Below are positions 1,544-62,770 of a stretch of DNA of 64,000 nucleotides, in pieces. The translations under genes were made by a program, and so were the position numbers. The stretch is from Spirochaetia bacterium (GTDB lineage Bacteria > Spirochaetota > Spirochaetia > SZUA-6 > Bin103): positions 1,536,001 through 1,600,000 of the forward strand of contig CBDAOI010000004.1 of NCBI GenBank assembly GCA_965198005.1, in the 5' to 3' direction. Numbering within the stretch: position 1 is the stretch's first letter; every line of letters starts with the position of its first letter. The notes under the pieces are model-generated. The model was not told the DNA's origin, ran no database searches, and worked only from the letters and a program-made list of their open reading frames with translations.

Positions 1544-3223
1544 ATGGAAACCGCCATGGAACAATCAGCATCCCGCACGGCGCCGCCACCGGCCCCGGCG
1601 CCGGCCGCCCCGCTCGACCTGGATCAGCTCGGCGACCGCATCGCCGAACTCTCCGCCCGCATCCAGGCCGCCACCTACGACCTGCTCTGTGACCTACGCG
1701 ACTTCGACCGCCGCCACGGCTGGGAAGGCTTCCGCTCCTGCGCCCACTGGCTCAACTGGCGCACCGGCCTCGACCTCGGCGCCGCGCGCGAGAAGCTGCG
1801 CGTGGCCGCCGCCCTGGCCGACCTCAACCACGTGAGCGCCGCCATGGCCTGCGGCGTGCTGTCCTATTCGAAGGTACGGGCGCTTTCTCGGGTGGCGACC
1901 CCGCTCACCGAGGCGCGGCTGCTGGCGGTGGCGTGCGGCGCGACCGCCGAGCAGGTGGAGCGGCTGGTGCGCGGCTGGCGGCGGGTGGACCGGGAGGCGG
2001 CGGCGGCCGGCGACGATGGCGCGCAGGTGCGCCTGGCGCGGCGCGGGTTGAGCCTGCGGGTGGACGAAGACGGGACGGTGGTGCTGCGCGGGCGGTTGCT
2101 GCCGGAGGTGGGGGCGGTGGTGCTGCGGGCGCTGGAGGCGGCGCTGGAGCAGGTGCCGGCGGCGGCGGCGGACGGCACGGAGTGCACTGCCTCGCAACGG
2201 CGCGCGGATGCGCTGGGGGTGGTGGCGGAGAGCGCGCTGGCCGGCAAGCTGGACCCGGGCGCGGCCGGTGACCGCTACCAGGTGACGGTGCACGTGGACG
2301 CGGCGGCGTTGGCCGCCGGTGAGACTGCCCCCGAGACTGCCTCCGACGCGCCGGAGATTTCCGCGGAAACGTGCGCCGGTGCTCCGGCCGCGGCAGCGAG
2401 CGCCCCGGCTGCGTCGGCAGCCGGCTGCGCGGCCGCTGACGCCGGCGCAGTTTCAGCGGAAACGCGGGGCACCGGCCGGACTGCGCCACCGGCGATGCCG
2501 GCAGCACCGTGCGCCGCCGGTGAGACTGCCGCCCAGCCGGTCGCACCGCCGGTCACCGCTCCCGTCGCGGACGCCCCTGAGCACACCGCCGCCGGCGCGC
2601 AGGTCCCCGCACCGGTGGCGCCGGCGCCGGCAGCCGACTCCACCCCCGCCGCCGGCGCGGCGGTCATCGAACAGGCGAATGGCATTCACCTCGCTGCGAC
2701 CGCAGCCCGCCGCATCGCCTGCGACGCCGGCCGCGTGCTGGTGACCCACGCTCCCGACGGCGCAGTCCTGGAGGTCGGGCGCAGAACGCGCACGGTGCCG
2801 ACTCCGTTGCGCCGCGCGCTGGAGGTCAGAGACCACCATCAGTGTCAGTTCCCCGGCTGCCAGCTCCGCCACTGCGACGCGCATCACGTCGTGCACTGGG
2901 CGGACGGCGGGGCGACGCGGCTCGAGAATCTCGTTTTGTGCTGTCGCTACCACCACCGGGCGGTGCACGAGGAGGGGTTTCAGGTGGTCTCTGACGGGGA
3001 TGGGCAGTTTGTGTTCCGGCGGCCGGATGGTACGCCGCTGCCGGCGGTGCCGGTGGCGCCGCGTTGGGAGGGAGCGCCGCTGGAGCCGACCGAGGCGCGG
3101 CTACGGCAGGCGGGGATCACGATCGGCCCGCATACGGCGACGCCGGAGTGGTACGGGGAGTCGCTCGACCTGGCGGCGTCGCTCGACGTGCTTTGGGAAC
3201 CGCCGCCGGCCGGCGGTTCATGA
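1544..3223 (+). CDS. DUF222 domain / HNH endonuclease (13E12-repeat-like family)
   Basis: N-terminal FDRRHGWEGFRSCAHWLNWRTG; RRIACDA..VLEVGRRTR; C-terminal RDHHQCQFPGC..CDAHHVVHWADGGATRLENLVLCCRYHHRAVH. TACCAT -10 lies 6 nt before ATG 1544. Confidence 0.92.
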   Translation: METAMEQSASRTAPPPAPAPAAPLDLDQLGDRIAELSARIQAATYDLLCDLRDFDRRHGWEGFRSCAHWLNWRTGLDLGAAREKLRVAAALADLNHVSAAMACGVLSYSKVRALSRVATPLTEARLLAVACGATAEQVERLVRGWRRVDREAAAAGDDGAQVRLARRGLSLRVDEDGTVVLRGRLLPEVGAVVLRALEAALEQVPAAAADGTECTASQRRADALGVVAESALAGKLDPGAAGDRYQVTVHVDAAALAAGETAPETASDAPEISAETCAGAPAAAASAPAASAAGCAAADAGAVSAETRGTGRTAPPAMPAAPCAAGETAAQPVAPPVTAPVADAPEHTAAGAQVPAPVAPAPAADSTPAAGAAVIEQANGIHLAATAARRIACDAGRVLVTHAPDGAVLEVGRRTRTVPTPLRRALEVRDHHQCQFPGCQLRHCDAHHVVHWADGGATRLENLVLCCRYHHRAVHEEGFQVVSDGDGQFVFRRPDGTPLPAVPVAPRWEGAPLEPTEARLRQAGITIGPHTATPEWYGESLDLAASLDVLWEPPPAGGS

Positions 3224-7934: not shown

Positions 7935-9415
7935 CCCCCGCAACCGGGCCGGCGGCCGCGGTGCGCCGCCGCCGGCGCCTGCTGATCGTGCTGGCAAGCA
8001 TGACAGTCTGCCTGCGGCCCGGATTTGCCGCCGAGCCGCCGAGCGACCGCGCGGCCGAGCTCGCGGCCGCGGGCGACTTCGCGGCTGCCATCGAGGTGGT
8101 GGATCAGTGGCTGACGCAGCATCCGGGTGATCCACGGCTGTACCCCATGCTGGTGCAGGTGGTGGCGACGGCGCCGCGGTCGGGCACGGCCCGCGCTTTG
8201 CTGGAGCACTACGGCCGGTTGCTGTCGGCGGAGCAGGCCGGAGTGCTGCGCGCGGCGCCGGCGGACTGGGCCGAGTTGCGCGGGGCCGTGGAGCAGGCGA
8301 TTACCGCACTGGAGCCGGGCGTGCCGGACGCCGCCGAGCGGCGCCAGGTGCTCCTGCTGGAACTGGGCCGGAGTCCGAGCGAACCGGAGGTAGACCCGAT
8401 GGTCGCGTCGGTGGCGGTAACGGCCGGGGCGGCACGGTACGCGGACTGGCATCAGAGTGACGGAATAGAGACGCGGTTGCGCGCCGCGTTCACCTTCGCA
8501 CCCGACCCCGAAGATGGCGGCACCACCGGGGTGATCGCCGGCTACGGACTGGTGTCGCTGCTCGCAACCAGTGGTCGGAACGGGGAGGCGCATACGGTGT
8601 TGGAACAATTGCGTGAGCGTTATCCCCGCAGTCCGGAGTACGCGCTCGCCGCGGTGGAGCTGGACGCTGTCGCCGCCGGCGGATCCCGGTGGCCGCGGAT
8701 CCTGCCGTTGCCGTCACCTGCCATGTTGCTGGGAGCACTGCGCTTGCCCGCGGCAGATCTCGCCGGGGCGGCGCCGTCCGCGCCGGTTGTCCAGCTCGCC
8801 CCCGCCGCGGCGGCGCCGATCGCACCGGAGGAGCCGGCCGCGCAGCCGAAACCTGGCGTGCGCCCTGCACCGGTTGGCGTGGCGGAGCCGCCGCCTCGGG
8901 AACGCGTTGCGGCGGCCGCGCCTGGCGTGCGTCGGGAACCGGAGCCGCTTGCCGGCCATGCAGCCGCGCCGTCGCCGGGATCGGTGACGGTCGCCACGAG
9001 CAGTCCGGTGCGACCGTCGTTCGGGCGAACCAGGTGGACGGAGCCGGTCGAGAGCCCCGCGGCGGAGGCCGTCGAGTCCTCTCCCACGCCGGCGGCGAGC
9101 CGCCCGCACGTCGGACCGATCACGGTCTCGGCCGTGCCGGATCCCGCGGTCTACTTCGTCGAGGTCGGCCGCTTCCACGACTCCGAGAAAGCGCTCGGCA
9201 TGGCCCGCGCCCTGCGCGTAGTGGGATATTCCGCCGCGGTGCGCGAGCGGCTGCAACCGGATGGGGCGGCCATGCAGGTCGTGGCGGTGAGCCGCAACCT
9301 CACGCGCGGGCAGGCCGAACGGTTGCTCATGCGGTTGCGCACCGCCGGCTACGACGGCCAGCTCAATCGGCGGACCCTGCACGAGGCTCTGCGCCGGCCT
9401 GATCGTCAGGGGTGA
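7931..9415 (+). CDS. SPOR-domain protein with TPR-like N-terminus
   Basis: Signal peptide; C-terminal YFVEVGRFHDSEKA..LRVVGYSA..AERLLMRLRTAGYDG. Confidence 0.8.
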   Translation: MTPATGPAAAVRRRRRLLIVLASMTVCLRPGFAAEPPSDRAAELAAAGDFAAAIEVVDQWLTQHPGDPRLYPMLVQVVATAPRSGTARALLEHYGRLLSAEQAGVLRAAPADWAELRGAVEQAITALEPGVPDAAERRQVLLLELGRSPSEPEVDPMVASVAVTAGAARYADWHQSDGIETRLRAAFTFAPDPEDGGTTGVIAGYGLVSLLATSGRNGEAHTVLEQLRERYPRSPEYALAAVELDAVAAGGSRWPRILPLPSPAMLLGALRLPAADLAGAAPSAPVVQLAPAAAAPIAPEEPAAQPKPGVRPAPVGVAEPPPRERVAAAAPGVRREPEPLAGHAAAPSPGSVTVATSSPVRPSFGRTRWTEPVESPAAEAVESSPTPAASRPHVGPITVSAVPDPAVYFVEVGRFHDSEKALGMARALRVVGYSAAVRERLQPDGAAMQVVAVSRNLTRGQAERLLMRLRTAGYDGQLNRRTLHEALRRPDRQG

Positions 9416-10955
9416 CCACCACGATCGCCCCGGCATCGTCGGCCGCGGTCTCCTCCTGCACGATCTCGACCTGCTCGAACCGCAGCCCGGTAGCGGCCGT
9501 CGCAACCACGCCGGTGACCTCCAGCGTCGCGGACCGCAGCAGGAGCGAGCGGAACAGGCGATCGCCGATCCGATGCTCGTCGTACTCCACGACGTAGGTT
9601 CGCAGTTCGCGCGTGACGCCCGCCGGTGACATGATCTTGAACACGATCACCGGTTGGCCGACCGAGTAGAGCCCATAGCCGCCGGACGCGCTGTCCGTTC
9701 CGTTCAACCAGGTGAAGCGCGGTGGCTCGAAGATGATCGTCTGGTCATGGTCCGCGGCGCGGTACACACCGGACAGGGGGAGATCCAGCGGGCGCGGATC
9801 GACGCCGGCGGACCGGGTCAGTTCGACTTGCCGGCTGGTCGTGAGCTGTTCGTAGTGGTGGTCGGCGTAGTCGCCCGACTCGCGGCCCTTGATCACCACG
9901 CGGATGGCGCGCAGCGAGTTCACCTCGACGTTGATGGTCTTCTGGATCGAGTCGACCAGCTCGTTGCGCACCCAGATGCCGAGCCGTGACGACAGCAGGC
10001 GATGCGAGACGTCCCAGGTGTAGATCTCCTGCACGTCCCCGTCGAACAGCGTGATGCGGCGCTGCTCCGGCTCGAAGTGGATCACTTCCGTGCCGCCCGC
10101 CGGACGCCCCTGGCCGGGTTCGATCATGCGATACCACGGCCCGGCCAGGAACTCCTCGAACGCCGCGGTCCCGCGACTGCCGAACAGCTCCCGCAACTGC
10201 CGTTCCTCCACCACCGCGCCGGGGATCCGTTCCGTCGGCAGGGCGTGATACCGCTCGTCTTGCGCCCGCCATTCGTATGCGGTCCTGAGAAGATCGGTCA
10301 CCTCGCTGCCCTGCGGGTCGGTTGCCTGCACCACGATCGGGAACGGGACTCCGGGGGTCCGATCCTGGATCTCTATGGCGCCCTCGGCTGCCACGGACAG
10401 GATCGAGACGAATGCGAGCTGCGGTCCGGCCGGCGCCTGCCGGTACACGTCGAGGGTGCGTTGGTCGCTGGCGTTGATGCCGCGCGCGACGATTTCAAGC
10501 TGGTGATCGCCGGTGACGTCCTGGACCTGCACGTTGAACGTGCGCGGATCGGTAGCGCGGGTAGCGGCCTCCCAGGTTCTGCGGTGCGGTGACCCGGGAC
10601 CGGCGGCGTCGACCACTATCAGCTTGATGACCGGGTTGCCCTCGACTTCGGCGCGGACCAGCACCAGTTGTTCATCGCCCTCGTCGCCGTCGAGATTGCC
10701 GGCCATCAGCCACAACAGTTCCTCGCCGCTCTGCAGCGGGGCCCACGGCTCGTTCTCGACCGTGTCGGTGGTGAGCGCCGGCGCGGGAAGTTCAGCGTCC
10801 GCGGTGGCGGGCGGGCGTACGGGGCCGATGGCCGCCGGTGTCTCGCCGGCAGGGTCGGCGGAGCGTTCCTCTCCGCATCCCCCCGCCAGCACGATGCCCG
10901 CGGCCAGCGCGCCTGCCGCGCCAGCCGCGCGCACCCGGCGCAGGTGCTCAGCCAC
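9363..10955 (-). CDS. Pallilysin-related adhesin-like lipoprotein (spirochaetal)
   Basis: Lipobox LAGGC; NLDGDEGDEQL and DVTGDHQLEIVARG motifs; context next to SPOR and purB. Start uncertain. Confidence 0.65.
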   Translation of the reverse strand: MAEHLRRVRAAGAAGALAAGIVLAGGCGEERSADPAGETPAAIGPVRPPATADAELPAPALTTDTVENEPWAPLQSGEELLWLMAGNLDGDEGDEQLVLVRAEVEGNPVIKLIVVDAAGPGSPHRRTWEAATRATDPRTFNVQVQDVTGDHQLEIVARGINASDQRTLDVYRQAPAGPQLAFVSILSVAAEGAIEIQDRTPGVPFPIVVQATDPQGSEVTDLLRTAYEWRAQDERYHALPTERIPGAVVEERQLRELFGSRGTAAFEEFLAGPWYRMIEPGQGRPAGGTEVIHFEPEQRRITLFDGDVQEIYTWDVSHRLLSSRLGIWVRNELVDSIQKTINVEVNSLRAIRVVIKGRESGDYADHHYEQLTTSRQVELTRSAGVDPRPLDLPLSGVYRAADHDQTIIFEPPRFTWLNGTDSASGGYGLYSVGQPVIVFKIMSPAGVTRELRTYVVEYDEHRIGDRLFRSLLLRSATLEVTGVVATAATGLRFEQVEIVQEETAADDAGAIVVVTPDDQAGAEPRAGSAD

Positions 10956-11490
10956 GGCAGCGGGCGAGGCAGGCGCGTACCGCCGCAGCCGCCCGGCGCG
11001 CGGCGACCGCCGGCAGCAGACACTCGTCGCGGAACGTGGCCGCCAGGAACGCCTGGATCGAATCCAGCACACCGGCGCGGGGCAGGAACAGAAACGCGAA
11101 GTCCGTGCCGCCCGGTTGCCCGACCGTAACCGGACCGGCGGCGGCTACCGGCCGCGCGCTGACCAGCACCCGGGCTCCGGCATGACCGCCGACGATCGCC
11201 AGCTCCGAAAACCGGTGCGGGATGCGGCCGTCCGGCGTGCGGCGGAACGGCTCCACGTCGTGCTCGGCGTGGCCGGCAGGCTCCACCAGCACGTACACCT
11301 TGTCGCCGGCGGCGTCGAGGGTGAGCGCGGCCGGCGACAATACCAGACTGCGCGCCTCCCGGTAGACCACGATCTCGAACCGCGTGATCGGGGACCCTTC
11401 GGCGGTAGCGGACGAAACGACGTAGCCGCCGCCCGCCGGCAGCTTGCCGCTGCGGTAGGCACTGAACAGTTCGAGCGCCTTGGTCACCAT
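10948..11490 (-). CDS. Hypothetical protein
   Basis: 180-aa ORF, host-like codon usage, overlaps the adhesin start. Confidence 0.7.
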   Translation of the reverse strand: MVTKALELFSAYRSGKLPAGGGYVVSSATAEGSPITRFEIVVYREARSLVLSPAALTLDAAGDKVYVLVEPAGHAEHDVEPFRRTPDGRIPHRFSELAIVGGHAGARVLVSARPVAAAGPVTVGQPGGTDFAFLFLPRAGVLDSIQAFLAATFRDECLLPAVAARRAAAAVRACLARCRG

Positions 11491-40599: not shown

Positions 40600-40835
40600 C
40601 TGTTGACATTACTTGCGCCGGGCCCCATGGTACTAGCTAGCTCACGATTGGACGGATGGTGATGAAGTCGGGCTTGACTAGGTCAGGCGAGCCTGAGACG
40701 ATAGGGAGTAAGGTGATCGAAGGATGCCGATGAAGCGCCATGACGACAGTCAGCGCAGTGACGGGTTGGCGGTGACGCAGGGTGATGAGCGCGGTGGGTC
40801 GCGCTTGACACGGATTTGGGGCGGCCTCTACAGTT
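40600..40835 (+). promoter_or_regulatory. Tandem TTGAC promoter-like region, diverged homolog of the 130-bp arrays
   Basis: TTGACA (40603), TTGACT (~40675), TTGACA-18-TACAGT (40805); atgaagcgccatgacgacagtcagcgc core at 40730. Confidence 0.6.
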
Positions 40836-41169
40836 GTCCGCGAATGGGCACTGACACCATCCAGCCCGACTACCGACTAGCCGCGCAGCAGCGGACCTCG
40901 CGGCGCCGGTGCTGAGCGCGGCACCATCGATCGGTGTGGCGCACAGCCGCCACGCGTCCGCGCGTCTAACGGCCGACAGCGTCGGCCGCAAACTCCACCG
41001 GTCCACAGCAGCGTGCGTAGCGACACTCGCCGGCACCTCTATACAGACAACCGACACATCTGTGCCCGACCATAGTTGTCGACGACAGATGCTCGCTAGC
41101 CGCGGCACCGGCCGGTCCGATGGCCGAGCCACCGTCCTGTCAAGGCACCCAATAGCTCAAATAGCACAA

Positions 41170-41384
41170 AAGAGGGGGTGCAAAATGATACTCAAAGAGC
41201 CGTAGGCGCGTGCGGCGTGAGCCCGGGTAAACCCGGTGAGTCACGCGCCGCGCGCGTGTAGTGAATCTGACTCAGACTGGCCGTCCGCGTTTGCGGGCGC
41301 GCCCGCGTTGCGGTGCGTCAGAGTAGCCAGGGAGCGGCAGTCCGCTTCGCAATACTCTCGAGAACACATTTCATGGAGAAAACA
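41170..41384 (+). promoter_or_regulatory. Conserved structured 5' leader with uORF MILKEP (41185-41205)
   Basis: Homologous to 53656-53870 and 61808-62020; SD GAGGGGG; several hairpins. Confidence 0.75.
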
Positions 41385-43194: not shown

Positions 43195-43510
43195 AGGGAA
43201 AAAGGGAGCTGGGAGTAAACCCCACAAGATCTCCGATATTACGGGGGCCCCAGTAAGCGGTTCCCGCAGCAAGCTGCGGGACGAGGGTCAAGCTTCCCAG
43301 CTCCCACACAAGATGTCTTTGCGAGGAGTCCGCCTTAGGGGGATTAAACTCCAGACGATAGGTTATTTGTATCTACCTCACCCCCTGTATGCCCCTCTCC
43401 AAGATTAGGAAGATGAGGGGATACCCCCCTCTTGTACACCTCCTGTCAAAGGAGAGGGGGAAGGATTAGGAGATCGCCACGCCCTTCAGTAGAAGGGCTC
43501 GCAATGAGGT
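43195..43510. repeat. REP-like palindromic elements between SBP and permease
   Basis: gggagctgggag..cttcccagctccc (also at 51782-51840 and 59931-59985); cccctctcc..ggagagggg; tgtctttgcgag..ctcgcaatga. Confidence 0.65.
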
Positions 43511-43517
43511 GTGTCAC

Positions 43518-44477
43518 ATGAGAGCCTATATCATGAGGCGGTTATTGCTGATAATCCCCACCTTGTTTATATTGACTATCCTCGTCTTTCTCTCCGTCCG
43601 CTTCATCCCCGGCGATATCATCGACGTCATGATTGGAGATTTGGCGTACATGGGTGCCGGCGATATAGACCGTGAAGCTCTTGAGCGTAAGCTGGGATTA
43701 GACGTACCTGTCTACGTGCAGTATGGACGCTGGGTGGGAGATATCTTACTACACGGCACCCTTGGCGAATCACTGCTTGGCGGTTTCACAATAGAGGAGA
43801 GGATACTCGCCAGATTGCCGGTAACGATTGAGCTTGGCCTCATGGCAATCGTAATCGGGCTAGTGATAGCCCTGCCAGTTGGCATCTACTCGGCGATTCG
43901 CCAGTATACGGTCGCCGACTACGTGGGGCGCTCCATCGCCGTCGTCGGCCTGGCAACGCCTAACTTCTGGCTGGGTATTATGGTCATGATCTTCCCGGCA
44001 ATCTGGTGGGGCTGGTCGCCACCGATGAAGCTAATTCCTTTCACCGAAGACCCGCTGGGGAATCTGGGGATGTTCCTCATTCCCAGCCTGATTCTGGGGA
44101 CGTACCTTTCTGCAGCCACCATGCGGATGACCCGCACCATGATGCTGGAGGTGCTGAGGCAGGACTATATCAGGACGGCCTGGTCCAAGGGACTCAAGGA
44201 GAGGGTCGTTGTTATGAGACACGCCGTCAAGAATGCCCTCATCCCGGTAGTTACCCTGATAGGACTGCAGATGCCCATCCTGGTAGGCGGCTCGGTGATC
44301 ATGGAGAACATCTTCAACCTGCCGGGATTAGGTCGTCTTATGCTGGATGCACTCCAAGTCAGAGACTACCCGTTGGTCTCCGGAATAAACCTGTTTCTTG
44401 CCACGGCGGTTATTGGAATCAATCTCATGATCGACCTGATCTATCCTTATTTAGACCCCGCGGTCCGTTATAAATAA
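43518..44477 (+). CDS. ABC permease, OppB/DppB-like
   Basis: Paralog of 24944-25900. Confidence 0.95.
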   Translation: MRAYIMRRLLLIIPTLFILTILVFLSVRFIPGDIIDVMIGDLAYMGAGDIDREALERKLGLDVPVYVQYGRWVGDILLHGTLGESLLGGFTIEERILARLPVTIELGLMAIVIGLVIALPVGIYSAIRQYTVADYVGRSIAVVGLATPNFWLGIMVMIFPAIWWGWSPPMKLIPFTEDPLGNLGMFLIPSLILGTYLSAATMRMTRTMMLEVLRQDYIRTAWSKGLKERVVVMRHAVKNALIPVVTLIGLQMPILVGGSVIMENIFNLPGLGRLMLDALQVRDYPLVSGINLFLATAVIGINLMIDLIYPYLDPAVRYK

Positions 44478-44494
44478 AGGGGGTAATCACGAGT

Positions 44495-45427
44495 ATGAGT
44501 GATGCTATAGGGATACCATCAACAGTAAGTAAGCCAAAGAGACGTACCGGGCTGGCTGATTTATTCATCAGGCTGTGGAAGGAGCAGCCACTAGGTACTG
44601 CCTGCGGGATTGTTGTATTGATATTGATTCTGGTGGCTATCTTTGCCGATGTTCTGGCTCCTTATCCATTTTGGGAAGCGCACCTGGTAGACAGGATGCA
44701 GGGCTCATCAACCCGGTATCTGCTGGGTACCGACCATGCGGGGCGAGACCTCTTGAGCCGCCTTATCTACGGGGCTCGCATTTCGTTGCTTGTCGGCCTG
44801 GTAGCGACTAGTGTTAATGTTGTGGTGGCTATCCTGATAGGCGGCATCTCGGGATTCTTTGGCGGTAAACTGGACTTGGCTGTGCAGAGATTTGTCGATG
44901 CCTGGATGGCTTTCCCGGGACTGCTCCTGTTGTTAACCGTAATGTCCATAGTGGGGCGGGGTGTGCCACAGATAATATTGGTCCTGGGGATATCAGGAGG
45001 CATCGGCGGCTCAAGAGTAGTCAGAGGCGCGGTGATTGGGGTCAAAGAGAAAGTCTATTTTCAGGCGGCGGAGGCAATTGGCAGCTCAGAATGGAGAACA
45101 CTTATCCGACATGTCCTTCCCAATATTGCGGCGCCCATAATCATCATATTCAGCATCAACATCGGAGGGGTGATTATCAGTGCGGCTTCTCTGAGCTTCC
45201 TCGGATACGGTCTGCCAGTCCAGATTCCCGACTGGGGTGCTATGCTCAGCCGGGAAGGACGTCAGTACATGGAGTCGGCGCCATGGCTGGCTCTCTGGCC
45301 TGGTCTCTGCCTAACTGTAACCGTTTACAGTCTAAACATGTTCGGCGACGCGGTGAGGGACCTGCTGGACCCGAGGCTCAGAGGTGGCGGGGGGCGCCTG
45401 GGTGGTGATGCCGCCCGGTCGGTTTAA
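44495..45427 (+). CDS. ABC permease, OppC/DppC-like
   Basis: LLGTD..GRD, RHVLPN, WPG..NMFGDAVRDLLDPRLR. Confidence 0.95.
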   Translation: MSDAIGIPSTVSKPKRRTGLADLFIRLWKEQPLGTACGIVVLILILVAIFADVLAPYPFWEAHLVDRMQGSSTRYLLGTDHAGRDLLSRLIYGARISLLVGLVATSVNVVVAILIGGISGFFGGKLDLAVQRFVDAWMAFPGLLLLLTVMSIVGRGVPQIILVLGISGGIGGSRVVRGAVIGVKEKVYFQAAEAIGSSEWRTLIRHVLPNIAAPIIIIFSINIGGVIISAASLSFLGYGLPVQIPDWGAMLSREGRQYMESAPWLALWPGLCLTVTVYSLNMFGDAVRDLLDPRLRGGGGRLGGDAARSV

Positions 45428-50728: not shown

Positions 50729-51721
50729 TCAAAAAACAACGTCTACTCCCCTTTCTCGGAGCTTGGAGATATGGACTTCCTTCGATGTCTCGCTCAAGGG
50801 GTTACCGGACAAACTGACTGTGTCCCCCTCAGAGAGCCCGCGGTTCTCGACCAGTGGTGAGATGTCGACTATCTGGTTGAACATGAGGTCGAGCTGGGCG
50901 AGATTAGTCAGGGAAGCTAGCGGTGAGAGGTCACTTATCTGATTCTGCTCAAGGCTGAGCGAGGTGATGCTGGTGAGGGAAGCTACCGGTGAGATGTCGC
51001 TTATCTGGTTCTGCTCAAGACTAAGCGCGGTTAAGTTGGTCAGCGGAGCCAGTAAGGAAGCCAGTAGTGAGAGGTCGCTTAGCTCGTTCCCCGTAAGGTC
51101 GAGCTCGGTGAGATTAGTCAGGGAAGCTAGCGGTGCAATGTCGCTTATCTGGTTCAACGCAAGGTCGAGCTCAGTGAGGTTAGTCAGAGAAGCCAGTGGT
51201 GAGATGTCGCTTATCCGGTTCTTCCTAAGGCCGAGATTGGTGAGATTAGTCAGGGAAGCTAGCGGCGAGATGTCGCTTATCCGGTTGTCGTAAAGGCTGA
51301 GCGAGGTGAAGTTGGCGAGCGAAGCCAGTGGTGAGAGGTCGCTTATCCGTCCATAGTGGAAAACCAGCTCGGTAAGGTTACTCAAATACTCCAATCCGGC
51401 GAGGTCGGTGATCTTGACTCTCGCATATCCCCTGCCTGATTCACGAAGCGAGGTGATGGTTTCCAGCTCCGAAACATGGATGGGACCTTGATGCTTCTGG
51501 ATAGCTGCCCTTATGACTCTCTCAAGAGCTTCGTCGGGGATGGTGACCCCTTCGCCCACTTCTTCTGTAGCACTAACAGGTTCTTCTGTAACACTAACAG
51601 GTTCTTCTGCAGTACTTGCAGGTTCTTCTGCAGTATTTACAGGTTCTTCCGCAGGGCCACAGCCGGAAAGAGTGAATATCATTACGAAGACAACGAACAA
51701 AGGCAAGCATTTCCTATCCAT
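50729..51721 (-). CDS. Internalin-like leucine-rich-repeat lipoprotein
   Basis: Lipobox LSGC; 7-aa (21-bp) EEPxxxx repeats at 51560-51650; cap VTIPDEALERVIR; ~22-aa LTNLTELDL..NQISDISPLAS repeats; own TATAAT and AGGAGGT. Confidence 0.92.
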   Translation of the reverse strand: MDRKCLPLFVVFVMIFTLSGCGPAEEPVNTAEEPASTAEEPVSVTEEPVSATEEVGEGVTIPDEALERVIRAAIQKHQGPIHVSELETITSLRESGRGYARVKITDLAGLEYLSNLTELVFHYGRISDLSPLASLANFTSLSLYDNRISDISPLASLTNLTNLGLRKNRISDISPLASLTNLTELDLALNQISDIAPLASLTNLTELDLTGNELSDLSLLASLLAPLTNLTALSLEQNQISDISPVASLTSITSLSLEQNQISDLSPLASLTNLAQLDLMFNQIVDISPLVENRGLSEGDTVSLSGNPLSETSKEVHISKLRERGVDVVF

Positions 51722-51840: not shown

Positions 51841-53655
51841 CTAACGACCCATGGCGTTCTTCAGCTCACTATCGATCCAGATCCGGGCTTGGACGGTATT
51901 ACGTTCACCCCATCCCATTCCTGCTTCACCGAAATAACCCTCGACCCACGGCTGGCTCACGGAAAACTTAGGGGACTTGGATTTGACTAGGCCCCAGTGC
52001 TCCCTCACAGTGATCTCATCGGCCTGTCTCAAAAGACTCCTATACTCCTCCATGTCGGTAGTTTCTTGGGAGGCAAGATACAGGGCGTCCATACGCGGGT
52101 CCTTCGCTTTGTTGTAGCTCCAGCCAAAGTTTTGGCTAATCCCCTTCATGGGGTTCCAAGTGGTGACGCCGCTGCCGCCATTATATCCCCCTTGCACTAG
52201 CGCCCACTCGTGCGTGTCCGCGCTATTGTCAGCGTTATGCTCAGCGATAGTCTGCGGAACAAGCTCGCCTTCAACGCCAATGGCGTCGAAGTACCCCATG
52301 ATGAGTTCTGCATAGTCTGTGGTGTACCTCTCAAAGGCCCTTACCTTGAGCTTGAATCTATAGCCGTCGGCGCCGCGGGGATACCCGGCCTCATCAAGGA
52401 GCTCCTCGGCCCTTTCGGGGTTATAGGTATATTCTTGCTTGACCTCCTCGGGCCACTCTTCATATGGCCAGGCCCACCCTTCTTCAAGATCTTGTCTCAT
52501 TAACCCGGCAGGCGCTGGATCTCCATAACCCTTAAAGAAGCTGGCGGAATTTACCTCGCGGTCCACTGACATCTGCAGTGCCTTGCGCACAATGGGGTCG
52601 TCAGTGGGCGGCAAAGCCCAGTTAAAAACGAAAACGCCGGCCGGTGCCCCAAGAAAGGGCCACACCTCGATTTCAGGGTTGGTCCGCTCGAGGGTCTCCA
52701 AATCGTCGACATTGTATATCCAAGAGTCGCCGAAGTTACCCATCACATCAATCTTACCCGTGCGGAATGCCGCCAGACGTGCCGACATCTCTCGCATCAT
52801 CAGGGACCTTAACTCGTCAATATAGGGGAGACGGTTCTCCGGGAATTTTTCGTCGTAGCCCCAGTAGTTAGGATTCTTCTCCCAGGTTACAGAGCTGCCG
52901 TCCACGTACTCAGTCAGTCTCCAGGGCCCGGTGCCGACCAGATTGCTCCAGTCCTTAGCGTCTCCGTATTTCTCGATTACCTCGGGAGCGTACGCAACCC
53001 AGTAGGGGTTGAGCAGTTTCCCCAGCACATCGAGGGTAGGCTCCGTCAGCTTCATAACAACCGTCCATTTGTCGGTGGCAGTTACCGATTCGAGACCTAC
53101 ACCCCAGGTGGTAGCAAATGTATGGGCGCTAGGTCCGGCCTCGGTGAAATCGCCCAGACCGAAATAGCGGTGATAGTTGTGTTCGACGTCATAGGCATCG
53201 AACTCCCGACCGTTCACCGGCTCCTTATCGTCCCAGTAAACGCCCTTGCGGATGTTCCAGATGAACGTTGTGTCGTCGGGCATTGACCAGCTTTCAGCCA
53301 GAGCCCCTCGAGTCATCTCTGGGCTCACAATGGCGTAGTCTCTACCGTTCCATATGTCCCTGGATAGTCCCCAGTCGGCGAACGCTAGCCTCTCAGTAAC
53401 ACCACCGACGAAATGATGCGCCCAGCCACTAACCCACCAATGGTCAGCATTTTCAGGATACGCCGTAGCGGCCCACGTGAGTGTGCCGCCGTACTCCGGC
53501 GCGGTCCACGTCATACCGGTGGCGGGGTCGAACACCGTCTCTTTGTCGGCAGCGGCTCCCGGTGCCTCTTCTGTGCCACCGCCGGCCCAGAGGCCGGTTG
53601 CGGTCAGAACTAGGACCAACGCAATCGCGAAGGTCCTTGAAAAAAATAGCTTCAT
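51841..53655 (-). CDS. Family-5 ABC substrate-binding protein
   Basis: Paralog of 41385-43166. Confidence 0.95.
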   Translation of the reverse strand: MKLFFSRTFAIALVLVLTATGLWAGGGTEEAPGAAADKETVFDPATGMTWTAPEYGGTLTWAATAYPENADHWWVSGWAHHFVGGVTERLAFADWGLSRDIWNGRDYAIVSPEMTRGALAESWSMPDDTTFIWNIRKGVYWDDKEPVNGREFDAYDVEHNYHRYFGLGDFTEAGPSAHTFATTWGVGLESVTATDKWTVVMKLTEPTLDVLGKLLNPYWVAYAPEVIEKYGDAKDWSNLVGTGPWRLTEYVDGSSVTWEKNPNYWGYDEKFPENRLPYIDELRSLMMREMSARLAAFRTGKIDVMGNFGDSWIYNVDDLETLERTNPEIEVWPFLGAPAGVFVFNWALPPTDDPIVRKALQMSVDREVNSASFFKGYGDPAPAGLMRQDLEEGWAWPYEEWPEEVKQEYTYNPERAEELLDEAGYPRGADGYRFKLKVRAFERYTTDYAELIMGYFDAIGVEGELVPQTIAEHNADNSADTHEWALVQGGYNGGSGVTTWNPMKGISQNFGWSYNKAKDPRMDALYLASQETTDMEEYRSLLRQADEITVREHWGLVKSKSPKFSVSQPWVEGYFGEAGMGWGERNTVQARIWIDSELKNAMGR

Positions 53656-53870
53656 CGTTTCTTCCTTCAAAGTTATCTTGAGAGTATTGCGTAGCGGATT
53701 GCCGCTCCCTGGCTACTCTGACGCCCGCAACCGCGGGCGCGCCCGGCAACGCGGACGGCCAGTCTGAGTCAATTTGTGAAGCGGGCGGCGTGTGACTCAC
53801 CGGGTTCACCCGGGCTCACGCCGCGCGCGCGTGCGGTTCTTTGAGTATCATCTTCACCTCCTTCTTGGGG
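53656..53870 (-). promoter_or_regulatory. Conserved structured leader with uORF MILKEPHARAA (53816-53851)
   Basis: SD AAGGAGGTGA; homologous to the other two leaders. Confidence 0.75.
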
Positions 53871-54184
53871 CACAGGGTGCCCTGCCAGATGGCTGACGTA
53901 AGATGGGATCCGCGTGCGCGGCCCATCATGCAAACGCCCACCGCTCGGCGGACGTCGGGACCTGCGTCACAACGCCACGCGGGGCGGTGGTCGGCCGAGC
54001 AACGAATGTGTTTGGCCGGCGACGTCGGCGGTCGGTTCTGTGACGGTGAGTTGGGGGGCGGGGATCCAGGACCGTTGCGGTCGTAGCCGGCCGCTACCCC
54101 GGTGCTGAAGGCGACGGCGTGCGCGGGGTCGCGTACGGGGCGATCAGCCGGAGCGGTTAGTTGATTCTCGGTTCGAAAAAGTAC

Positions 54185-54212
54185 GGGGGGGGGGGGGGGG
54201 GGGGGGGGGGGG
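54185..54212 (+). repeat. Poly-G tract (28 G)
   Basis: The paralogous site at 62335-62344 has 10 G. Confidence 0.8.
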
Positions 54213-54229
54213 TATGATGCACCGGTCGC

Positions 54230-54740
54230 GTCACAGCGAACCGGTCACTGCGCTTACGCCATCCTGGCGCGTCATCGTGACGCTTCATGACCATCCGTCG
54301 AACCCCAAGTGAGGCACGCTAGCATAGGCGCGGCGCGCCGTCAACGACTCGTGGGGGTCACCGGGGTGAGCGAAGGTCACCGCCAACCCGTCACTGGACG
54401 TCGTCATGGCGCTTCATCACCGTTCCGTCGAACCCCAAGCGAGGCAAGCTAGCATAGGCGCGGCGCGCCGTCAACGACTCGTGGGGGTCACCGTGAGCAG
54501 GTCACCGCCACCCGTCACCGCGCTGACTGTCGTCATGGCGCTTCATCACCGATCCGTCGAACCCCACGCGATGCAAGCTTGCTATGGACGCGGCCAGCCT
54601 GTCAACGACTCGGAGGTCACCGAGGTCACCGACCGTGACCGCCAACTGGCCACTGCGCTGGCGGTCGTCGTGGCGCTTCATCCTCATCGACTCTAACCCC
54701 TAACGGTGCAGTCTCTCGCGAGCGCGGCGACCCTGTCAAC
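54230..54740 (-). repeat. Tandem array of four ~130-bp units, each carrying TTGAC on the minus strand
   Basis: gtcaac at 54340, 54470, 54601 and 54735; cgcttcat at about 54281, 54410, 54538 and 54674. Confidence 0.9.
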
Positions 54741-55239: not shown

Positions 55240-57216
55240 CCGAAGTTCCAGAGGATGATTGTTAGGTAAGTTGCGTGATAACATATAGTTACGTGCAATT
55301 TCTCAGGTGCCGTGCGTGGCTACATCCGAGGCGTGAATCCCCAGTAGTTCGAAGCAGCGCTGCTGCACGGGCGTCGGCTGCGTCAGTAACTGGAAGGCGC
55401 CGCCACCCTCTGCAACCTGCATTGTGTTCGCTGTCAGCGTGCCTAACACGCTGATCAGCCCACGAAAACTGTGCACCGGCAGATCATCTGCGGTGCGCTT
55501 GCTGGACGCTTTCGCCTGTGCCGCCGGCGACCGCACCGCCGGGCGCACCACCGACGACCGTTGCCGTTCCCCCGCCTCCGGATCGTGGTCATCGAACAGC
55601 ACCGGCGCCAAGGTGCCGCGCATGTGCCACTCCACGTAGTAGGCCAGCATACACAACAGCACGTGCGCCCGTACCCGCTCAGCCCGCCGATGGTAGATCG
55701 GACGCACCTTCAGATCCACCGTCTTCATACTCCGGAACGCGCGCTCCACCTTGGACAGGTCCTTGTACGCCCGCACCGTCTGATCGGCGTCGAACAGCTC
55801 GGGCTCGACGTTGGAGCGCACGATGTACCGCCCATCGAGTTCTTCTTCGGCCGCGATCTTCTCCTGGTCACGCACAAACGTGAATGAGGTCTCGGTGATC
55901 TCGGTGATGAAATGCTTGGCCACCTTGTGCTGGTTGATCACCTTGCCCACCCGGATGCCGATCTCACCGGCGCCGCGCAGCGGATCGTTGGCGCGCTGCG
56001 TGGCAGTCACGATGGAGGCCAGTTTCTCTTCGGTGGCGGCCAACAACTCCAGCCGCTTGCGCCGCCGTTGCTCGGCCAACACCGGGTTGCGGCACACGAC
56101 CAGCCGTTCGCCGGGAAAGTCGGGACTGCTGATCTCCGCCAAGTCACGTTCGTCGAACAACGTCGGCGTCACGCTCCCGGCCGCGATCAGCTTGCGGATG
56201 GTGGGCGCGCGCAAGGTCGTGATCCAGCGCAGCCCGTCGATTCCCTGCAGATCCTCCCGGATGCGCGCGCCAGTGAGCATGCCGCGGTCGCCCACCAGCA
56301 CCACCCGCTGCAACCCGAAGCGCCTGCGAATCTTGTCCACCTGCGCGGCGACCGTCTTCGGGTCGCTGGTCGAGCCCTCGAATACCTCGACCGCCACCGG
56401 ACAGCCGGCTGCCGTGCACAGCAGCCCGAACACGATCTGCAAGGTGCCGCGCTTGCCGTCGCGGCTGTGACCGCGCTGCGCCAACGGACAGGTGTGTCCC
56501 TCGAAATAGCTGGAGGCAAGGTCATACAACATCAGCGTGTTGTCACTCAGGTGGCGCTGTGCCAAGCGGTTCTCGATCCCCTGCTGGCGCCGTACCAGCC
56601 AGTCCATCGCTTGGTACAACTCATTCTCATCGACCGCGCCTAACCCCAGCAGTTGGCCCAGGGTGGACACTGCGGTCTCGGCGGACAGCGCGCTGGCGGT
56701 GGCCAGTTTGGAGCGGGCGTCGATCACGCGGGCGACGATCATGGCGATCACCAGACCGCGCATGCGGCTGGCAGGACGGGCGATGAGGGTGTGCAGACCG
56801 AGCTGCTTGAGGGTGCCGAGGACGGCGGCCACGTGACCATGGGCGTAGCTGCGCACGCAGGTGAAGGCGGCATCGGGATTGACGAGGGGTTCGCCTTTGA
56901 GAGCTCTGCGGATGAGATCGATGACGCGGCTGGGGAGGTGGGAGATGTTACCGAGGGTTTCGTGCTTGACCTTGCCGTCCTGGCGGAAGGTTCTGCGCAG
57001 CAAATGGGTGTGGTAGGTCTTGTTGTTGTGGCGGCGGGTGGTGGTGGCTACATGGACTGCACCGTTTCTGGTTGGCATCGTTGATAGAGTACACACAACA
57101 GCGAAATAAGTCAATGCCATTGGGGGTAAACTCGTGGCTACACATTGCACGGTCACAAAGCCACTAATTACTTGTATGTAAAGTAATTAACCCAGATTTT
57201 CCGTCTGGAACTTCGG
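55240..57216 (-). mobile_element. IS1634-family insertion sequence
   Basis: 13-bp TIR CCGAAGTTCCAGA / TCTGGAACTTCGG; ATTAGA on both flanks (55234-55239, 57217-57222). Confidence 0.92.
55303..57078 (-). CDS. IS1634-family DDE transposase
   Basis: LYDLASSYFEG, GHSRDGK, VGDRGM, YKDLSKVERAFRSMK, VRPIYH..RVRAHV; promoter TTGACT-17-TACTCT 7 nt before ATG 57078. Confidence 0.95.
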   Translation of the reverse strand: MPTRNGAVHVATTTRRHNNKTYHTHLLRRTFRQDGKVKHETLGNISHLPSRVIDLIRRALKGEPLVNPDAAFTCVRSYAHGHVAAVLGTLKQLGLHTLIARPASRMRGLVIAMIVARVIDARSKLATASALSAETAVSTLGQLLGLGAVDENELYQAMDWLVRRQQGIENRLAQRHLSDNTLMLYDLASSYFEGHTCPLAQRGHSRDGKRGTLQIVFGLLCTAAGCPVAVEVFEGSTSDPKTVAAQVDKIRRRFGLQRVVLVGDRGMLTGARIREDLQGIDGLRWITTLRAPTIRKLIAAGSVTPTLFDERDLAEISSPDFPGERLVVCRNPVLAEQRRRKRLELLAATEEKLASIVTATQRANDPLRGAGEIGIRVGKVINQHKVAKHFITEITETSFTFVRDQEKIAAEEELDGRYIVRSNVEPELFDADQTVRAYKDLSKVERAFRSMKTVDLKVRPIYHRRAERVRAHVLLCMLAYYVEWHMRGTLAPVLFDDHDPEAGERQRSSVVRPAVRSPAAQAKASSKRTADDLPVHSFRGLISVLGTLTANTMQVAEGGGAFQLLTQPTPVQQRCFELLGIHASDVATHGT

Positions 57217-59789: not shown

Positions 59790-59990
59790 TTGTCATTGCG
59801 AGCCCCCCCCCCCCGTCATTCCCGCGAAAGCGGGAATGCATAGTAATTTCAAATGGTTGCGTTTTCTGGATTCCGGGTCTTCGCCCGGAATGACAGTGAG
59901 AAAGCGCCCCTCTCATTATTTGAGGAGTATCGGGAGCTGGGAAGCGCGCCTGCAGGCGACAGCCTCCCAGCTCCCCTTTTCCCTGAGCTA
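59790..59990. repeat. REP-like palindromes (GTCATTCCCGCGAAAGCGGGAAT type) and the post-SBP hairpin
   Basis: gtcattcccgcgaaagcgggaatg..ttccgggtcttcgcccggaatgac; gggagctggga..tcccagctccc; poly-C at 59803-59814. Confidence 0.75.
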
Positions 59991-59996
59991 AGCCAC

Positions 59997-61807
59997 CTAA
60001 TAACCCATGGCTTCCTTCATCTCGGAATCAATCCAGAGGCGGGCCCATAACTGACCATAACGCTGCCCCCAACCCAGCTGGAATTCACCGTTGTAGCCTA
60101 CGAGCCACGGCTGGTTCACGTTAAACATTGGGACTTTGAAGTACCATACGTAGTAATGGTTCTTAATCATGTACGCATCCGCCTCTTTCAGTCGCCTCTG
60201 CTGGTCCTCCAAGGTGGTAGCGGCTTCGGCGGCTTCAATCAAGCTATCAAGATGCTCGTCCTGTACTCCCGGTATGTTAACCGTTCCTTCCGAGTGACCA
60301 AAAGCGCGCATCATCCACATGGGGTCTCCATGATCGAACCCCAACATCGCCGATGTCATACCTTCGTAGCTATGGTCACGTGAAATAGCTTGCCAATGAC
60401 CAGAGGTGTCGACGGGTACATTTACCTCTACATCAACGCCAATCGCAGCCCAGTAGTCGGCAGCTATTTCTGAAAGGCTTGTGTCCCCTAACGCCACCCC
60501 AAACTGCGTCTGGGTGGTCTTGAATCTAATGCCATCCGCACCGCGCGGGTATCCAGCCTCATCAAGCAGCTTCTCGGCCCCTTCCGGGTCATACCTATAG
60601 CCTTTCTTGACCTCTTCGGGCCACTCATCAAATGGGACGAAATAATCCACAACACCGTCACCTATCACCCCCTGAGGTATCCACTTAGCCCGACCCTTGT
60701 AGTAGGCATTGTTGACTGTCTCGAGGTCCTGAGCCATCTGCATTGCCTTGCGCACCCGGATGTCGTCAAAGGGCGACTGACTTACGTTCATGGCAAAAGA
60801 TGTGTAGTCCGACCGAAATTGGTACGGGAGAAACTTGAGTTCGGGGTTGGTCTTCTGGAGGCCATCTACTTGGTCGAGTCTTGTTTCACTGCCGCCACTG
60901 AAACCCATGTAATCAATCTTACCCGTGCGCATTGCCGAAATACGCGTTGCCTCATCTTCCATCATCAGGAGCCTTATCTCGTCAAAATAAGGCAAGCGGT
61001 TCTCCGGGAACTTCTCGTCATAGCCCCAGTAGTCAGGATTCTTGGTCCAGGTGGCAGAGGTCGCCTCGACAACATCAGTCAGCATAAAGGGACCGGTGCC
61101 GACCAGGTTCCTCCAATCGTTAGCGTCCCCGTGTTCCTCGATTACCTCGGGGGGATATATATAAGGATCATAGTTGTTGAAGATAACCGACAGCACCCCG
61201 AGGTATGGCTTCGTCAGCTTAAAAACAACCGTCCAATCGTCGGTAGCCGTTACCGATTCAATTGGCAGGCTCTCATATTTTTGGACAGGTCCAAATTCAC
61301 TCCACTTGCCCAGACCAAAATAGCGGTGCCAGTTGTATTCCACATCCTTGGCAGTTAGCTCCCGACCGTTCATCGGCTCCTTATCGTGCCAGTGAACGCC
61401 CTTGCGGATGTAGAAGACTATCGTTGTGTCGTCGGGCGTTTCCCAGCTTTCCGCCAGCTGCCCTATCATGACCCAGAGAGGTACAGCCGACTAATGTGGT
61501 CATGTACGTCCCTATCTATTCCCCAGTCCGCGATGGATAGCCTCTCGACGACGCCACCCGCCGCAGCTAGGCCGCCGGTGGGTGTGGGATAACTGTCAGT
61601 GTTTTGACCTGTTTGGTATCGGCTGACCCAGGTGAATGTCCCGCCATACTCTGGCGCGGGCACCTCCTTGCCGGTGGTGGGGTCGGTCACGTACTTCTTG
61701 TCGGCGGCCGCTGCCGGCTCCTCTTCTGAGCCAGCGGCCCACAGGCCGGTTGCGCTCAGAATCAGGACCAACGTAATCGCGAAGGTCCTTGCAAAAAATA
61801 TCTTCAT
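59997..61807 (-). pseudogene. Family-5 ABC substrate-binding protein split by one frameshift near 61470-61500
   Basis: N-part ends ..HDHISRLYLSGS*; C-part VPLWVMIGQLAESWE.. is in another frame. Real lesion or sequencing error. Confidence 0.9.
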
Positions 61808-62020
61808 CGTTTCTTCCTTGAATGTTATTTCGAGAGTATTGCGGAGCGACTTGCGCTCCCTGGCTACTCTCATGCCCGCAACAGCGGGCGCGCCCGCCAA
61901 TGCAGACGGCCAGTTTGAGTCAAATGGCTGAAGCGCGCGGCGTGTGACTCACCGGGTTCGCCCGGGCTCACGCCGCGCGCGCGTGCGGTTCTTTCAGTAT
62001 CATCTTCACCTCCTTCTTGG
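61808..62020 (-). promoter_or_regulatory. Conserved structured leader with uORF MILKEPHARAA (61968-62003)
   Basis: Third copy of the leader. Confidence 0.75.
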
Positions 62021-62359
62021 GGCACAGGGTGCCCTGCCAGATGGCTGACGTAAGATGGGATCCGCGTGCGCGCCCCATCATGCAAACGCCCACCGCTCGG
62101 CGGACGTCGGGACCTGCGTCACAACGCCACGCGGGGCGGTGGTCGGCCGAGCAACGAATGTGTTTGGCCGGCGACGTGGGCGGTCGGTTCTGTGACGGTG
62201 AGTTGGGGGGCGGGGATCCAGGACCGTTGCGGTCGTAGCCGGCCGCTACCCCGGTGCTGAAGGCGACGGCGTGCGCGGGGGCACGTAGGGGGCGATCAGC
62301 CGGAGCGGTTAGTTGATTCTCGGTTTGAAAAAGTGGGGGGGGGGTATGATGCACCGGTC

Positions 62360-62770
62360 GCGTCACAGCGAACCGGTCACTGCGCTTACGCCATCCTGGC
62401 GCGTCATCGTGACGCTTCATGACCATCCGTCGAACCCCAGGCGAGGCACGCTAGCATAGGCGCGGCGCGCCGTCAACGACTCGTGGGGGTCACCGAAGGT
62501 CACCGCCAACCCGTCACCGCGCTGTCGCCATCCTGGCGCCTCATGCCATCCTGGCACGTCATCATGGCAGTTCATCACCGATCCGTCGAACCCCACGCGA
62601 CGCAAGCTTGCTATGGACGCGGCCAGCCTGTCAACGACTCGGAGGTCACCGAGGTCACCGACCGTGACCGCCAACTGGCCACTGCGCTGGCGGTCGTCGT
62701 GGCGCTTCATCCTCATCGACTCTAACCCGGAACGGTGCACTCTCTCGCGAGCGCGGCCACCCTGTCAACA
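62360..62770 (-). repeat. Tandem array of three ~130-160-bp units
   Basis: gtcaac at 62472, 62630 and 62764; same unit as 54230-54740. Confidence 0.9.

Follow-up and report, generated by a model that had tools for sequence, protein, structure and literature searches.

What does one and the same leader, made of a strong SD, a tiny ORF and a foldable RNA block, do ahead of three transporter operons that lie in a single 64,000-nt stretch from the genome of a sponge-associated member of the Spirochaetia (we call the entire stretch the window)? An initial annotation had read it as ribosome-coupled or ligand-sensing control of an importer family. We found that the tiny ORF (mini-ORF) is the end of a leader of 400–800 nt, whose upstream ORF in most copies contains poly(C) or a heptamer repeat. 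This longer leader, with its repeat-controlled frame, was missing from the earlier account. Together, the sequences point to phase-variable leader-peptide control with a new RNA fold, restricted to one lineage.

Results

Three Leaders in the Window

The three copies lie where they had been placed, at 41170–41384 (+), 53656–53870 (−) and 61808–62020 (−), and are here called A, B and C (Table 1). Each precedes an SBP_bac_5 gene, and two permease genes occur in every operon (Pfam). An ATPase gene is absent from all operons seen. The parts described earlier were recovered as well: GGGGG or GGAGG stands ahead of the mini-ORF in all three copies, the mini-ORFs encode MILKEP or MILKEPHARAA, and the GC hairpin is present as a 12-bp GC stem, at the top of which the stop codon of the copy B mini-ORF sits. 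The TGAGTCA/TGACTCA pair and the gcccgc stems recur in all three, and the AGAGTA...TACTCTC element ends 22–25 nt before the SBP start codons.

The closest solved relatives of the copy B binding protein are HbpA and DppA. In operon B, a leucine-rich-repeat gene (50729–51721, −) separates the SBP gene from the two permeases, and a DDE transposase gene (55303–57156) lies between operons B and C. The SBP gene of operon C is split into ORFs of 113 and 490 codons, with the break near 61466–61469, despite a leader in the putative ON frame, which is either a real lesion or an assembly error; many paralogues are truncated. A C12 tract on the opposite strand (about 59803–59814, +), between this SBP gene and the first permease, adjoins a short palindrome. 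Elsewhere in the window, ORFs at 9363–11072 (−) and 1529–3223 (+) gave a match to a pallilysin beta-barrel domain (E 1.5e-9) and a DUF222-HNH match.

Table 1. Positions of leader and operon features of copies A, B and C within the window.
Feature	Position	Strand	Basis
Copy A sigma70-like promoter TTGACA-18-TACAGT, transcript predicted to begin at about 40841	40805–40834	+	sequence, consensus scan; predicted
Copy A long leader ORF head (MGTDTIQPDY..., 23 aa), out of frame with MILKEP	40844–40915	+	putative OFF state
Copy A heptamer repeat (CCGACTA)2; other copies 2–4 units	40866–40879	+	sequence
Copy A stop-free body, MILKEP frame, 110 codons	40855–41184	+	sequence
Copy A SD and mini-ORF MILKEP*, ATG 41185, TAG 41203–41205	41171–41205	+	sequence
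Copy A pseudoknot A	41208–41274	+	prediction
Copy A pseudoknot A, 12-bp stem plus apical hairpin	41208–41219/41244–41255	+	predicted
Copy A pseudoknot A, TGAGTCA with TGACTCA	41237–41243/41268–41274	+	predicted
Copy A pseudoknot B, hairpins inserted	41277–41359	+	prediction
Copy A pseudoknot B, CTGGC/GCCAG crossing AGAGTA/TACTCT	41277–41281/41326–41330 crossing 41320–41325/41353–41358	+	predicted
Operon A SBP_bac_5 gene, 593 aa	41385–43166	+	Pfam
Operon A two permeases, after SBP gene	43509–45427	+	Pfam
Copy B nearest promoter of tandem sigma70-like array, TTGACG-17-TAGCGT	54316–54344	−	consensus scan
Copy B long leader ORF head (MKRHDD...), stop about 25 nt past tract	54157–54288	−	putative OFF state
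Copy B poly(C) tract, 28 nt	54185–54212	−	sequence
Copy B C-rich body, MILKEP frame alone open	53852–54184	−	sequence
Copy B SD GGAGG and mini-ORF MILKEPHARAA*, ATG 53851, TGA 53818–53816	53816–53861	−	sequence
Copy B pseudoknot A	53765–53828	−	prediction
Copy B pseudoknot B	53680–53762	−	prediction
Operon B SBP_bac_5 gene, 604 aa, DppA/HbpA-like	51841–53655	−	Pfam
Copy C sigma70-like promoter TTGACG-17-TAGCGT	62448–62476	−	consensus scan
Copy C long leader ORF, 152 aa, through C tract, ends MILKEPHARAA*	61968–62426	−	putative ON state
Copy C poly(C) tract, 10 nt	62335–62344	−	sequence
Copy C SD and mini-ORF MILKEPHARAA*, ATG 62003	61968–62013	−	sequence
Copy C pseudoknots A (61980–61916) and B (61913–61832)	61832–61980	−	prediction
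Operon C SBP_bac_5 gene, split; two permeases after	59997–61807	−	Pfam

A Large, Lineage-Restricted Leader Family

Gathering the paralogous leaders with nhmmer gave 85 matches in the source genome, 74 of them near full length, many more than chance would produce. The 5' part is present in 81 copies; a pattern search paired 70 of these with an SBP start, and the other 11 are truncated or were missed by the pattern. The mini-ORF is conserved well beyond the window, in about 80 copies of the source genome. These leaders (class I) and about 37 diverged homologues all stand at genes for family-5 binding proteins. The SBP N-terminus has 154 matches, 75 of which carry a class I leader, and the same 3' core precedes 37 of the 73 other SBP genes, one of these being a truncated class I copy; the module is missing at about a quarter of SBP genes. 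In class II the mini-ORF reads MxPKTGYD, MKSPYD, MQN or VKP, or is reduced to start-stop or to the SD alone. GGAGG is found in 34/37 class II leaders vs 46/261 controls, and an SD with a short ORF in 25/37 vs 6/261. Some of the homologous leaders, for example at C2:465268, C3:886845 and C4:944788, have nothing more than ATG TAG as a mini-ORF, or a perfect SD followed by ATA where the ATG would be.

Leader identity and SBP identity are nearly uncorrelated (rho 0.09, 55 sequences), and in 14/14 leader pairs that are at least 95% alike the SBPs are less than 60% alike. The leaders are swapped among genes and do not track the cargo. Because paralogues share and swap modules, the copies counted here are not independent, and the p-values overstate significance.

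The leader is restricted to one lineage. Other records of Spirochaetia bacterium carry it, and BLAST found it in 7/10 genomes of the same genus and in 0/30 other relatives. A covariance model (R1) detected it in the source genome, in 6/10 same-genus genomes and, with one weak match each, in 4/13 genomes of the sister genus; there were no hits in 17 other genomes of the order or in 150 across the phylum. Of 42 metagenome pattern matches, two were strong, and each of them was almost the same as a copy from this genus. No such leader stood upstream of the SBP relatives found in other phyla. SBP relatives of 55–65% identity in other bacterial records are preceded by tandem SD-ATG modules and repeated hairpins, and the occurrence of the same SBP family in Dehalococcoidia records suggests that the family moved between phyla. 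No description of the element was found in Rfam 15 or in the accessible literature; as far as searched, it is previously undescribed.

The four sister-genus genomes (G013, G020, G019 and G023) hold one short copy each, ahead of an SBP-like gene. This short version keeps the last helix and one hairpin, is without a mini-ORF, and follows a TTGACG box; upstream of it is a gene that we take to be phytanoyl-CoA dioxygenase-like. It has an 8-bp anti-SD helix, CUUCGCCC/GGGUGGAG, and the pairings of its SD are mutually exclusive. The short copy is possibly the ancestral, riboswitch-like form.

Selection on the Mini-ORF

The initial annotation stated that the first six codons differ by synonymous changes only. 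This is so in the three window copies and, across the family, for codons 3–6 (L-K-E-P), but not for the start codon and codon 2, which deviate in 6/76 and 8/76 copies, respectively. Among 76 unique copies of the source genome, codons 3–6 showed 51 third-position vs 4 first- or second-position differences. Likewise, 6 of the 8 possible synonymous single changes were seen, against 4 of the 28 replacements (Fisher p 0.002), and 38 synonymous vs 4 replacement steps were counted on a tree built from the sequence downstream of codon 7, recombination inflating both numbers. All these counts come from nhmmer-collected copies of the source genome, gathered without reference to the codon pattern; the six class II ORFs that were caught are left out. 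They argue that L-K-E-P is under amino-acid selection, in class I leaders only, and that the mini-ORF is likely translated.

The coding sequence of H-A-R-A-A is at the same time the 5' strand of the stem. As codon 7 changes among His, Tyr and stop (17 steps on the tree), this tail is dispensable. In 13/76 copies translation would end at codon 7, before the stem, with Glu-Pro-stop, a known stalling context according to the available text of bioRxiv 2021.08.16.456513. In 5/5 related copies devoid of any start codon, a run of 96–180 open codons still ends in (L/R)KEP, for which the background rate gives a chance of about 0.08; among the 15 weak rows of that scan, three spurious matches were left out. 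A fusion of the mini-ORF with the SBP by read-through or frameshifting was rejected, the spacing between them falling in all three frames (20/22/28 of 70).

Two Predicted Pseudoknots

The 3' part of the module covaries strongly, in two crossing helices. One of them, CUGGC/GCCAG, had been absent from the earlier description; it crosses AGAGUA/UACUCU, and the two form what we call pseudoknot B. The 3' core shared among the classes consists of CUGGC/GCCAG or CCCUCGC/GCGAGGG with an extension, plus GAGAGYR/YRCUCUC. When 44 distinct sequences from eight genomes were aligned to a model without the second helix, 13 of 25 pairs changed on both sides, including 4/7 within that helix. None of 500 shuffles, which ignore kinship, reached 13 pairs, and slid controls gave 2–6; in a MAFFT alignment, 8/25 pairs changed on both sides. 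Both helices are predicted to form simultaneously. The loops vary in length (4–46 nt) and in sequence, as judged by inspection of sequences from one clade.

The TGAGTCA/TGACTCA pairing, first described as an alternative to the GC hairpin, fits a second pseudoknot (A), but it covaries thinly, and it need not exclude the stem because TGAGTCA lies in the stem's internal loop, adjoining, in class I, the top of the 12-bp stem. In 68/77 class I copies the linker to GACTC is 9–13 nt long and 69% A+U; a short A+U-rich linker of such geometry is that of an H-type pseudoknot. No core pair of the five is broken in more than 2/50 copies, the pairs being otherwise invariant or wobble, and changes on both sides are confined to the two flanking pairs, those broken in 22/50 and 11/50. 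As RNAalifold pairs part of the TGAGTCA strand with the stop codon instead, the alternative fold may hold after all.

Refolding linked to the ribosome was modelled with nested folds in 36 copies. A ribosome placed over the codon-12 stop raised the median probability of GAGUC/GACUC from 0 to 0.74, which is consistent with such refolding, but the accessibility of the SBP SD shifted by more than 0.2 in only 2/36 copies, once up and once down. An SD occlusion switch in class I was rejected on the same 36 copies, the probability of anti-SD pairing being near 0 in the nested model without pseudoknots. The idea that ribosomes coming from upstream free an occluded mini-ORF SD was also rejected, a gain above 0.25 being seen in 17/76 copies only.

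The module folds more stably than the spacer before it (z −3.06 vs −0.95, 66 copies); copy B alone, taken as 221 nt including its ends, folded no better than shuffles (z −0.23). The initial annotation recognised no known riboswitch, and the Rfam scan agrees: nothing in the window matched at gathering score, the best E was 0.13 around copy B, and 20 diverse leaders had no match at E ≤ 5. Many class I copies enclose the start codon of the SBP gene in a 6-bp hairpin, CAUACG/CGUAUG, whose loop contains the SD; a CAUAGG/CCUAUG variant of this hairpin is compensatory.

A Repeat-Controlled Frame in the Long Leader

From 5' to 3', the leader consists of promoter-like sites, an ORF head, a repeat, stops in two frames, an open frame, the SD-led mini-ORF, the folded block and the SBP start. 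The promoter-like sites lie mostly 400–850 nt before the SBP start and are often tandem. The genome has 121 C9+ tracts; 81 of them stand in sense orientation no more than 900 nt away from an SBP start, where no tract occurs as G. Where both a tract and a promoter-like site were found, the nearest such site is upstream of the tract in 63/65 cases. Tandem arrays of sigma70-like promoters in units of 125–140 nt were seen at 54310–54740 (−), 62440–62660 (−) and 40700–40835 (+); each repeat unit bears an ORF head of the MKRHDD type, to which the genome has 57 matches.

Going upstream from the mini-ORF, no stop interrupts the MILKEP frame for a median of 114 codons vs 27.5 and 6 in the other frames, and in 57/78 leaders it is open for at least 60 codons. 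Past the tract, one frame reaches the target, that is, the mini-ORF or the SBP start, while the two others close within 60 nt in 60/78 C9+ leaders (null 6.8%). This pattern was found in 30/40 class I leaders, 18/24 of class II and 12/14 others, and at 14/16 loci of related genomes (null 5.9%). The early stops are TAA, TAG and TGA in different flanks (62/76). The open frame either finishes within the mini-ORF, runs across its ATG, or stops nearby; where there is no pseudoknot, it is mostly fused to the SBP, or its end overlaps the start codon of the SBP gene (ATGA). The best upstream start lies in the open frame in 33/56 leaders vs one third expected (p 8e-5 if independent), and in 5/14 leaders of the relatives, so there is no ON-frame excess in the latter.

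Some copies carry heptamer or octamer repeats of 2–4 units. Within the 520 nt scanned, about 38 class I copies lack a C9+ tract, and in roughly half of them no repeat was seen. Poly(C) is as common in leaders that lack the module (17/36) as in those that have it, which argues that the module is not needed for switching. Substitutions in the long leader peptide fall on the three codon positions as 114/113/123, and a coding function of this peptide was rejected for want of any bias; the peptide being neutral, what counts seems to be the frame and the coverage rather than the sequence. Indels in the open bodies are not enriched in multiples of three (35/93); in distances from the stop module to the mini-ORF, multiples of three are enriched (14/23 distinct lengths).

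In silico, the repeat length sets whether the leader ORF is short or long: copy C (C10) reads through and copy B (C28) stops early. Copy A, with two heptamers, also stops early (putatively OFF); sister copies sharing its ORF head run for 92–118 aa into M(I/T)LKEP. Tract lengths range from 9 to 28 nt among paralogues, subject to possible errors of long-read homopolymer lengths. RNA contigs of two runs showed tract deletions of 1 and 3 nt, which may reflect paralogues or different strains. The leader is covered by RNA contigs of four studies; RNA starts, ends and levels are not readable from these, and their summed depths mix paralogues. The RNA runs that hold the stretch include sponge metagenomes. 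Loss of mismatch repair as a driver of slippage was rejected, mutS being present.

The Spacer and Rho

The spacer between the repeat and the mini-ORF has a C>G skew of 0.147 vs −0.03 in 261 control regions, and the skew exceeds 0.1 in 76% of 79 leaders vs 8% of the controls. The region after the mini-ORF stop is folded, with a C−G skew of −0.04, unlike the rut site that Rho-dependent uORF attenuators have at the uORF stop or directly behind it. A U-tract (U6 or U4NU3) between the mini-ORF and the SBP start was found in 0/70 leaders. The source genome has rho; its frame (C3:1094517–1095761) is open for 583 codons vs a 415-position model and may have an N-terminal extension.

Discussion

How would these parts act together? 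The explanation that we favour, with a probability of about 0.5, is that the repeat sets the frame of the upstream ORF and thereby decides at random, via Rho-dependent termination, whether a given transporter operon is on or off. At an ON tract length, ribosomes would cover the C-rich, weakly folded spacer of 200–450 bases; at OFF lengths, they would leave 20–60 nt past the repeat. Since the spacer is C-rich and weakly folded and rho is present, OFF lengths would expose it to Rho. More tentatively, the mini-ORF may catch incoming ribosomes whatever their frame, be it directly in frame, through an ATGA overlap or through re-initiation; L-K-E-P together with pseudoknot A may slow them or hold them at that point, and the folded block may bridge the untranslated 150–200 nt to the SBP start without offering a Rho site. 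Receiving or slowing ribosomes and bridging the gap is the most likely role of the module, and the least supported part of the scheme. The strong SD of the mini-ORF counts against the scheme, as it could bypass the switch. So do the missing ON-frame excess in relatives, the open-body indels without enrichment in multiples of three, and the class I copies devoid of a C9+ tract. A fuller version, to which we lend limited credence, would be a two-step gate at about 100 swappable leaders, in which the random slipped-strand repeat/Rho shield is followed by a conditional checkpoint of L-K-E-P, as a new arrest motif halted against an H-type knot, and the tandem pseudoknots, giving each cell a random subset of uptake systems.

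Two other explanations also use the ribosome or the fold. The repeat switch could act on translation instead, with ribosomes from the long frame rearranging the pseudoknots and thereby turning on the SBP start, much as MgtQ does for mgtB, a translational relay in keeping with the direct coupling of pseudoknot-free leaders through ATGA overlap, with most class I stops lying at the top of stem 1, where covering frees GAGUC/GACUC, with the complementarity of the last-helix 3' strand ACUCU to GGAGU in many copies, and with the anti-SD of the sister-genus version. We consider it unlikely: in 34/36 copies of the nested model the SD was unresponsive to ribosome footprints, the spacing from stop to structure ranges from about 13 to 60 nt among classes, and the copies ending in Glu-Pro-stop do so before the stem. 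Ribosome-coupled control as first proposed is likely, as are a translated, selected mini-ORF and a covarying structure; the modelled refolding does not reach the SBP ribosome-binding site. Alternatively, a conditional sensor might act in series with the switch, with L-K-E-P as an arrest peptide or pseudoknot B as an aptamer gating on a metabolite, a drug or starvation. Selection on L-K-E-P, the Glu-Pro-stop stalling context, the strong covariation of pseudoknot B, and the sister-genus copy, which directly follows a promoter-like site and has exclusive SD pairings without a mini-ORF, would all suit a sensor. However, homologous leaders bear unrelated peptides or an SD only, no run of one regulatory codon is present, the loops of pseudoknot B are variable, and near-identical leaders serve dissimilar SBPs, which makes this explanation quite unlikely. 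The ligand-sensing control put forward initially gained no positive support.

The remaining explanations dispense with switching. In one, a ribosome on the SD and the pseudoknots would constitutively shield the 5' end of an abundant SBP mRNA after cleavage in the spacer. No feature is more constant from class to class than the SD, the module folds very stably, RNase Y is present in the source genome, and the leader appears in RNA contigs of four studies. RNase J is the 5' exonuclease that is halted by STAB-SD or other 5' roadblocks; it was found neither in the source genome (90% complete) nor in 5/5 relatives, so that a RNase J roadblock was rejected, and RNase E/G was not found in the source genome. 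Stabilisation also leaves the selection on L-K-E-P and the frame pattern unexplained, and we regard it as improbable. Still less credible is a neutral passenger, whose seeming conservation would stem solely from gene conversion evening out the 5' ends within an amplified gene family, even though leader and SBP identities are nearly uncorrelated and the element is confined to one family, SBP relatives in other phyla being without it. Homogenisation does not give synonymous-only change, compensatory pairs (13/25) or three kinds of stop that close two frames.

If the random-switch explanation is true, contingency-locus logic would extend from the surface antigens of pathogens to the nutrient importers of a symbiont, which suggests how a 150-member transporter family stays affordable, as bet-hedging. 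More speculatively, it might also spare cells the toxic peptides that Dpp/Opp-type importers let in. The element would also represent a new covarying RNA pseudoknot family with more than 100 natural variants per genome, and L-K-E-P a candidate four-residue pausing motif. The tested precedent for repeat-switched leader peptides, at two streptococcal pilus loci, relies on intrinsic terminators; in the literature searched, we found no Rho-read, repeat-switched leader peptide, nor one across a large paralogue family.

Comparison with Known Systems

Classical amino-acid attenuators (trp, his, ilv) combine a run of regulatory codons with a terminator/antiterminator pair. In contrast, neither MILKEPHARAA nor MxPKTGYD has a repeated codon, and the U-tract is missing. 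With metabolite riboswitches the element shares a covarying structure, but it matches no Rfam family, and in class I it has no platform overlapping the SD or a terminator (nested model, 36 copies); an expression platform overlapping the SD is possible in the sister-genus copy.

Among uORF attenuators, tnaC, speFL, cruR and mgtM are Rho-dependent, according to the available text of PMC12360218. As in these, the position of the ribosome on a leader ORF would govern the access of Rho, the short peptide is selected, and the targets are transporters. Their input is a ligand, whereas here the apparent input is a DNA repeat and no ligand is indicated; moreover, in speFL the stalled ribosome masks an adjacent rut site, while in our leaders the C-rich stretch precedes the mini-ORF. 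The same source links phase variation of E. coli fim and C. difficile flgB to Rho termination in the leader, so that a phase state is read as Rho-dependent leader termination, as proposed here, but the change there is a DNA inversion and not a frameshift in a translated leader. The uORFs of M. tuberculosis with NUGA overlaps resemble our pseudoknot-free leaders in that a stop-start overlap goes with less Rho termination, and no repeat switch or pseudoknot is described in the accessible part of that report (bioRxiv 2022.06.01.494293). Salmonella mgtQ is likewise a small ORF ahead of a transporter gene with overlapping alternative stems; it acts on translation via acidic residues and L31 and, as far as the available text of PMC8092293 goes, has no repeat, while in our leaders the modelling gave no effect on the RBS. 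The 5'-UTR of H. influenzae hmw joins a heptamer repeat to RNA structure and is phase-variable, but its control is graded and RNase III-dependent, with no leader ORF described in the sections available (PMC12721329).

The element fits fully under neither the pil1 type discussed next, nor the Rho-dependent uORF attenuators, nor the riboswitches. Its closest precedent is pil1 of Streptococcus gallolyticus, where, together with pil3, the number of repeats in a leader ORF sets the leader stop and the operon switches stochastically (PMC3894217, available text). In both systems a simple repeat lies in a leader ORF, and the longer leaders end at or in a hairpin. According to that source, the pil1 repeats are GCAGA units and termination is intrinsic, the terminator having six T; two pilus loci are involved. 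The leaders described here use poly(C) or heptamers, lack a U-tract (0/70), keep one of three frames long, and add a C-rich spacer of 200–450 nt, an extra SD-led mini-ORF and pseudoknots, at about a hundred transporter loci.
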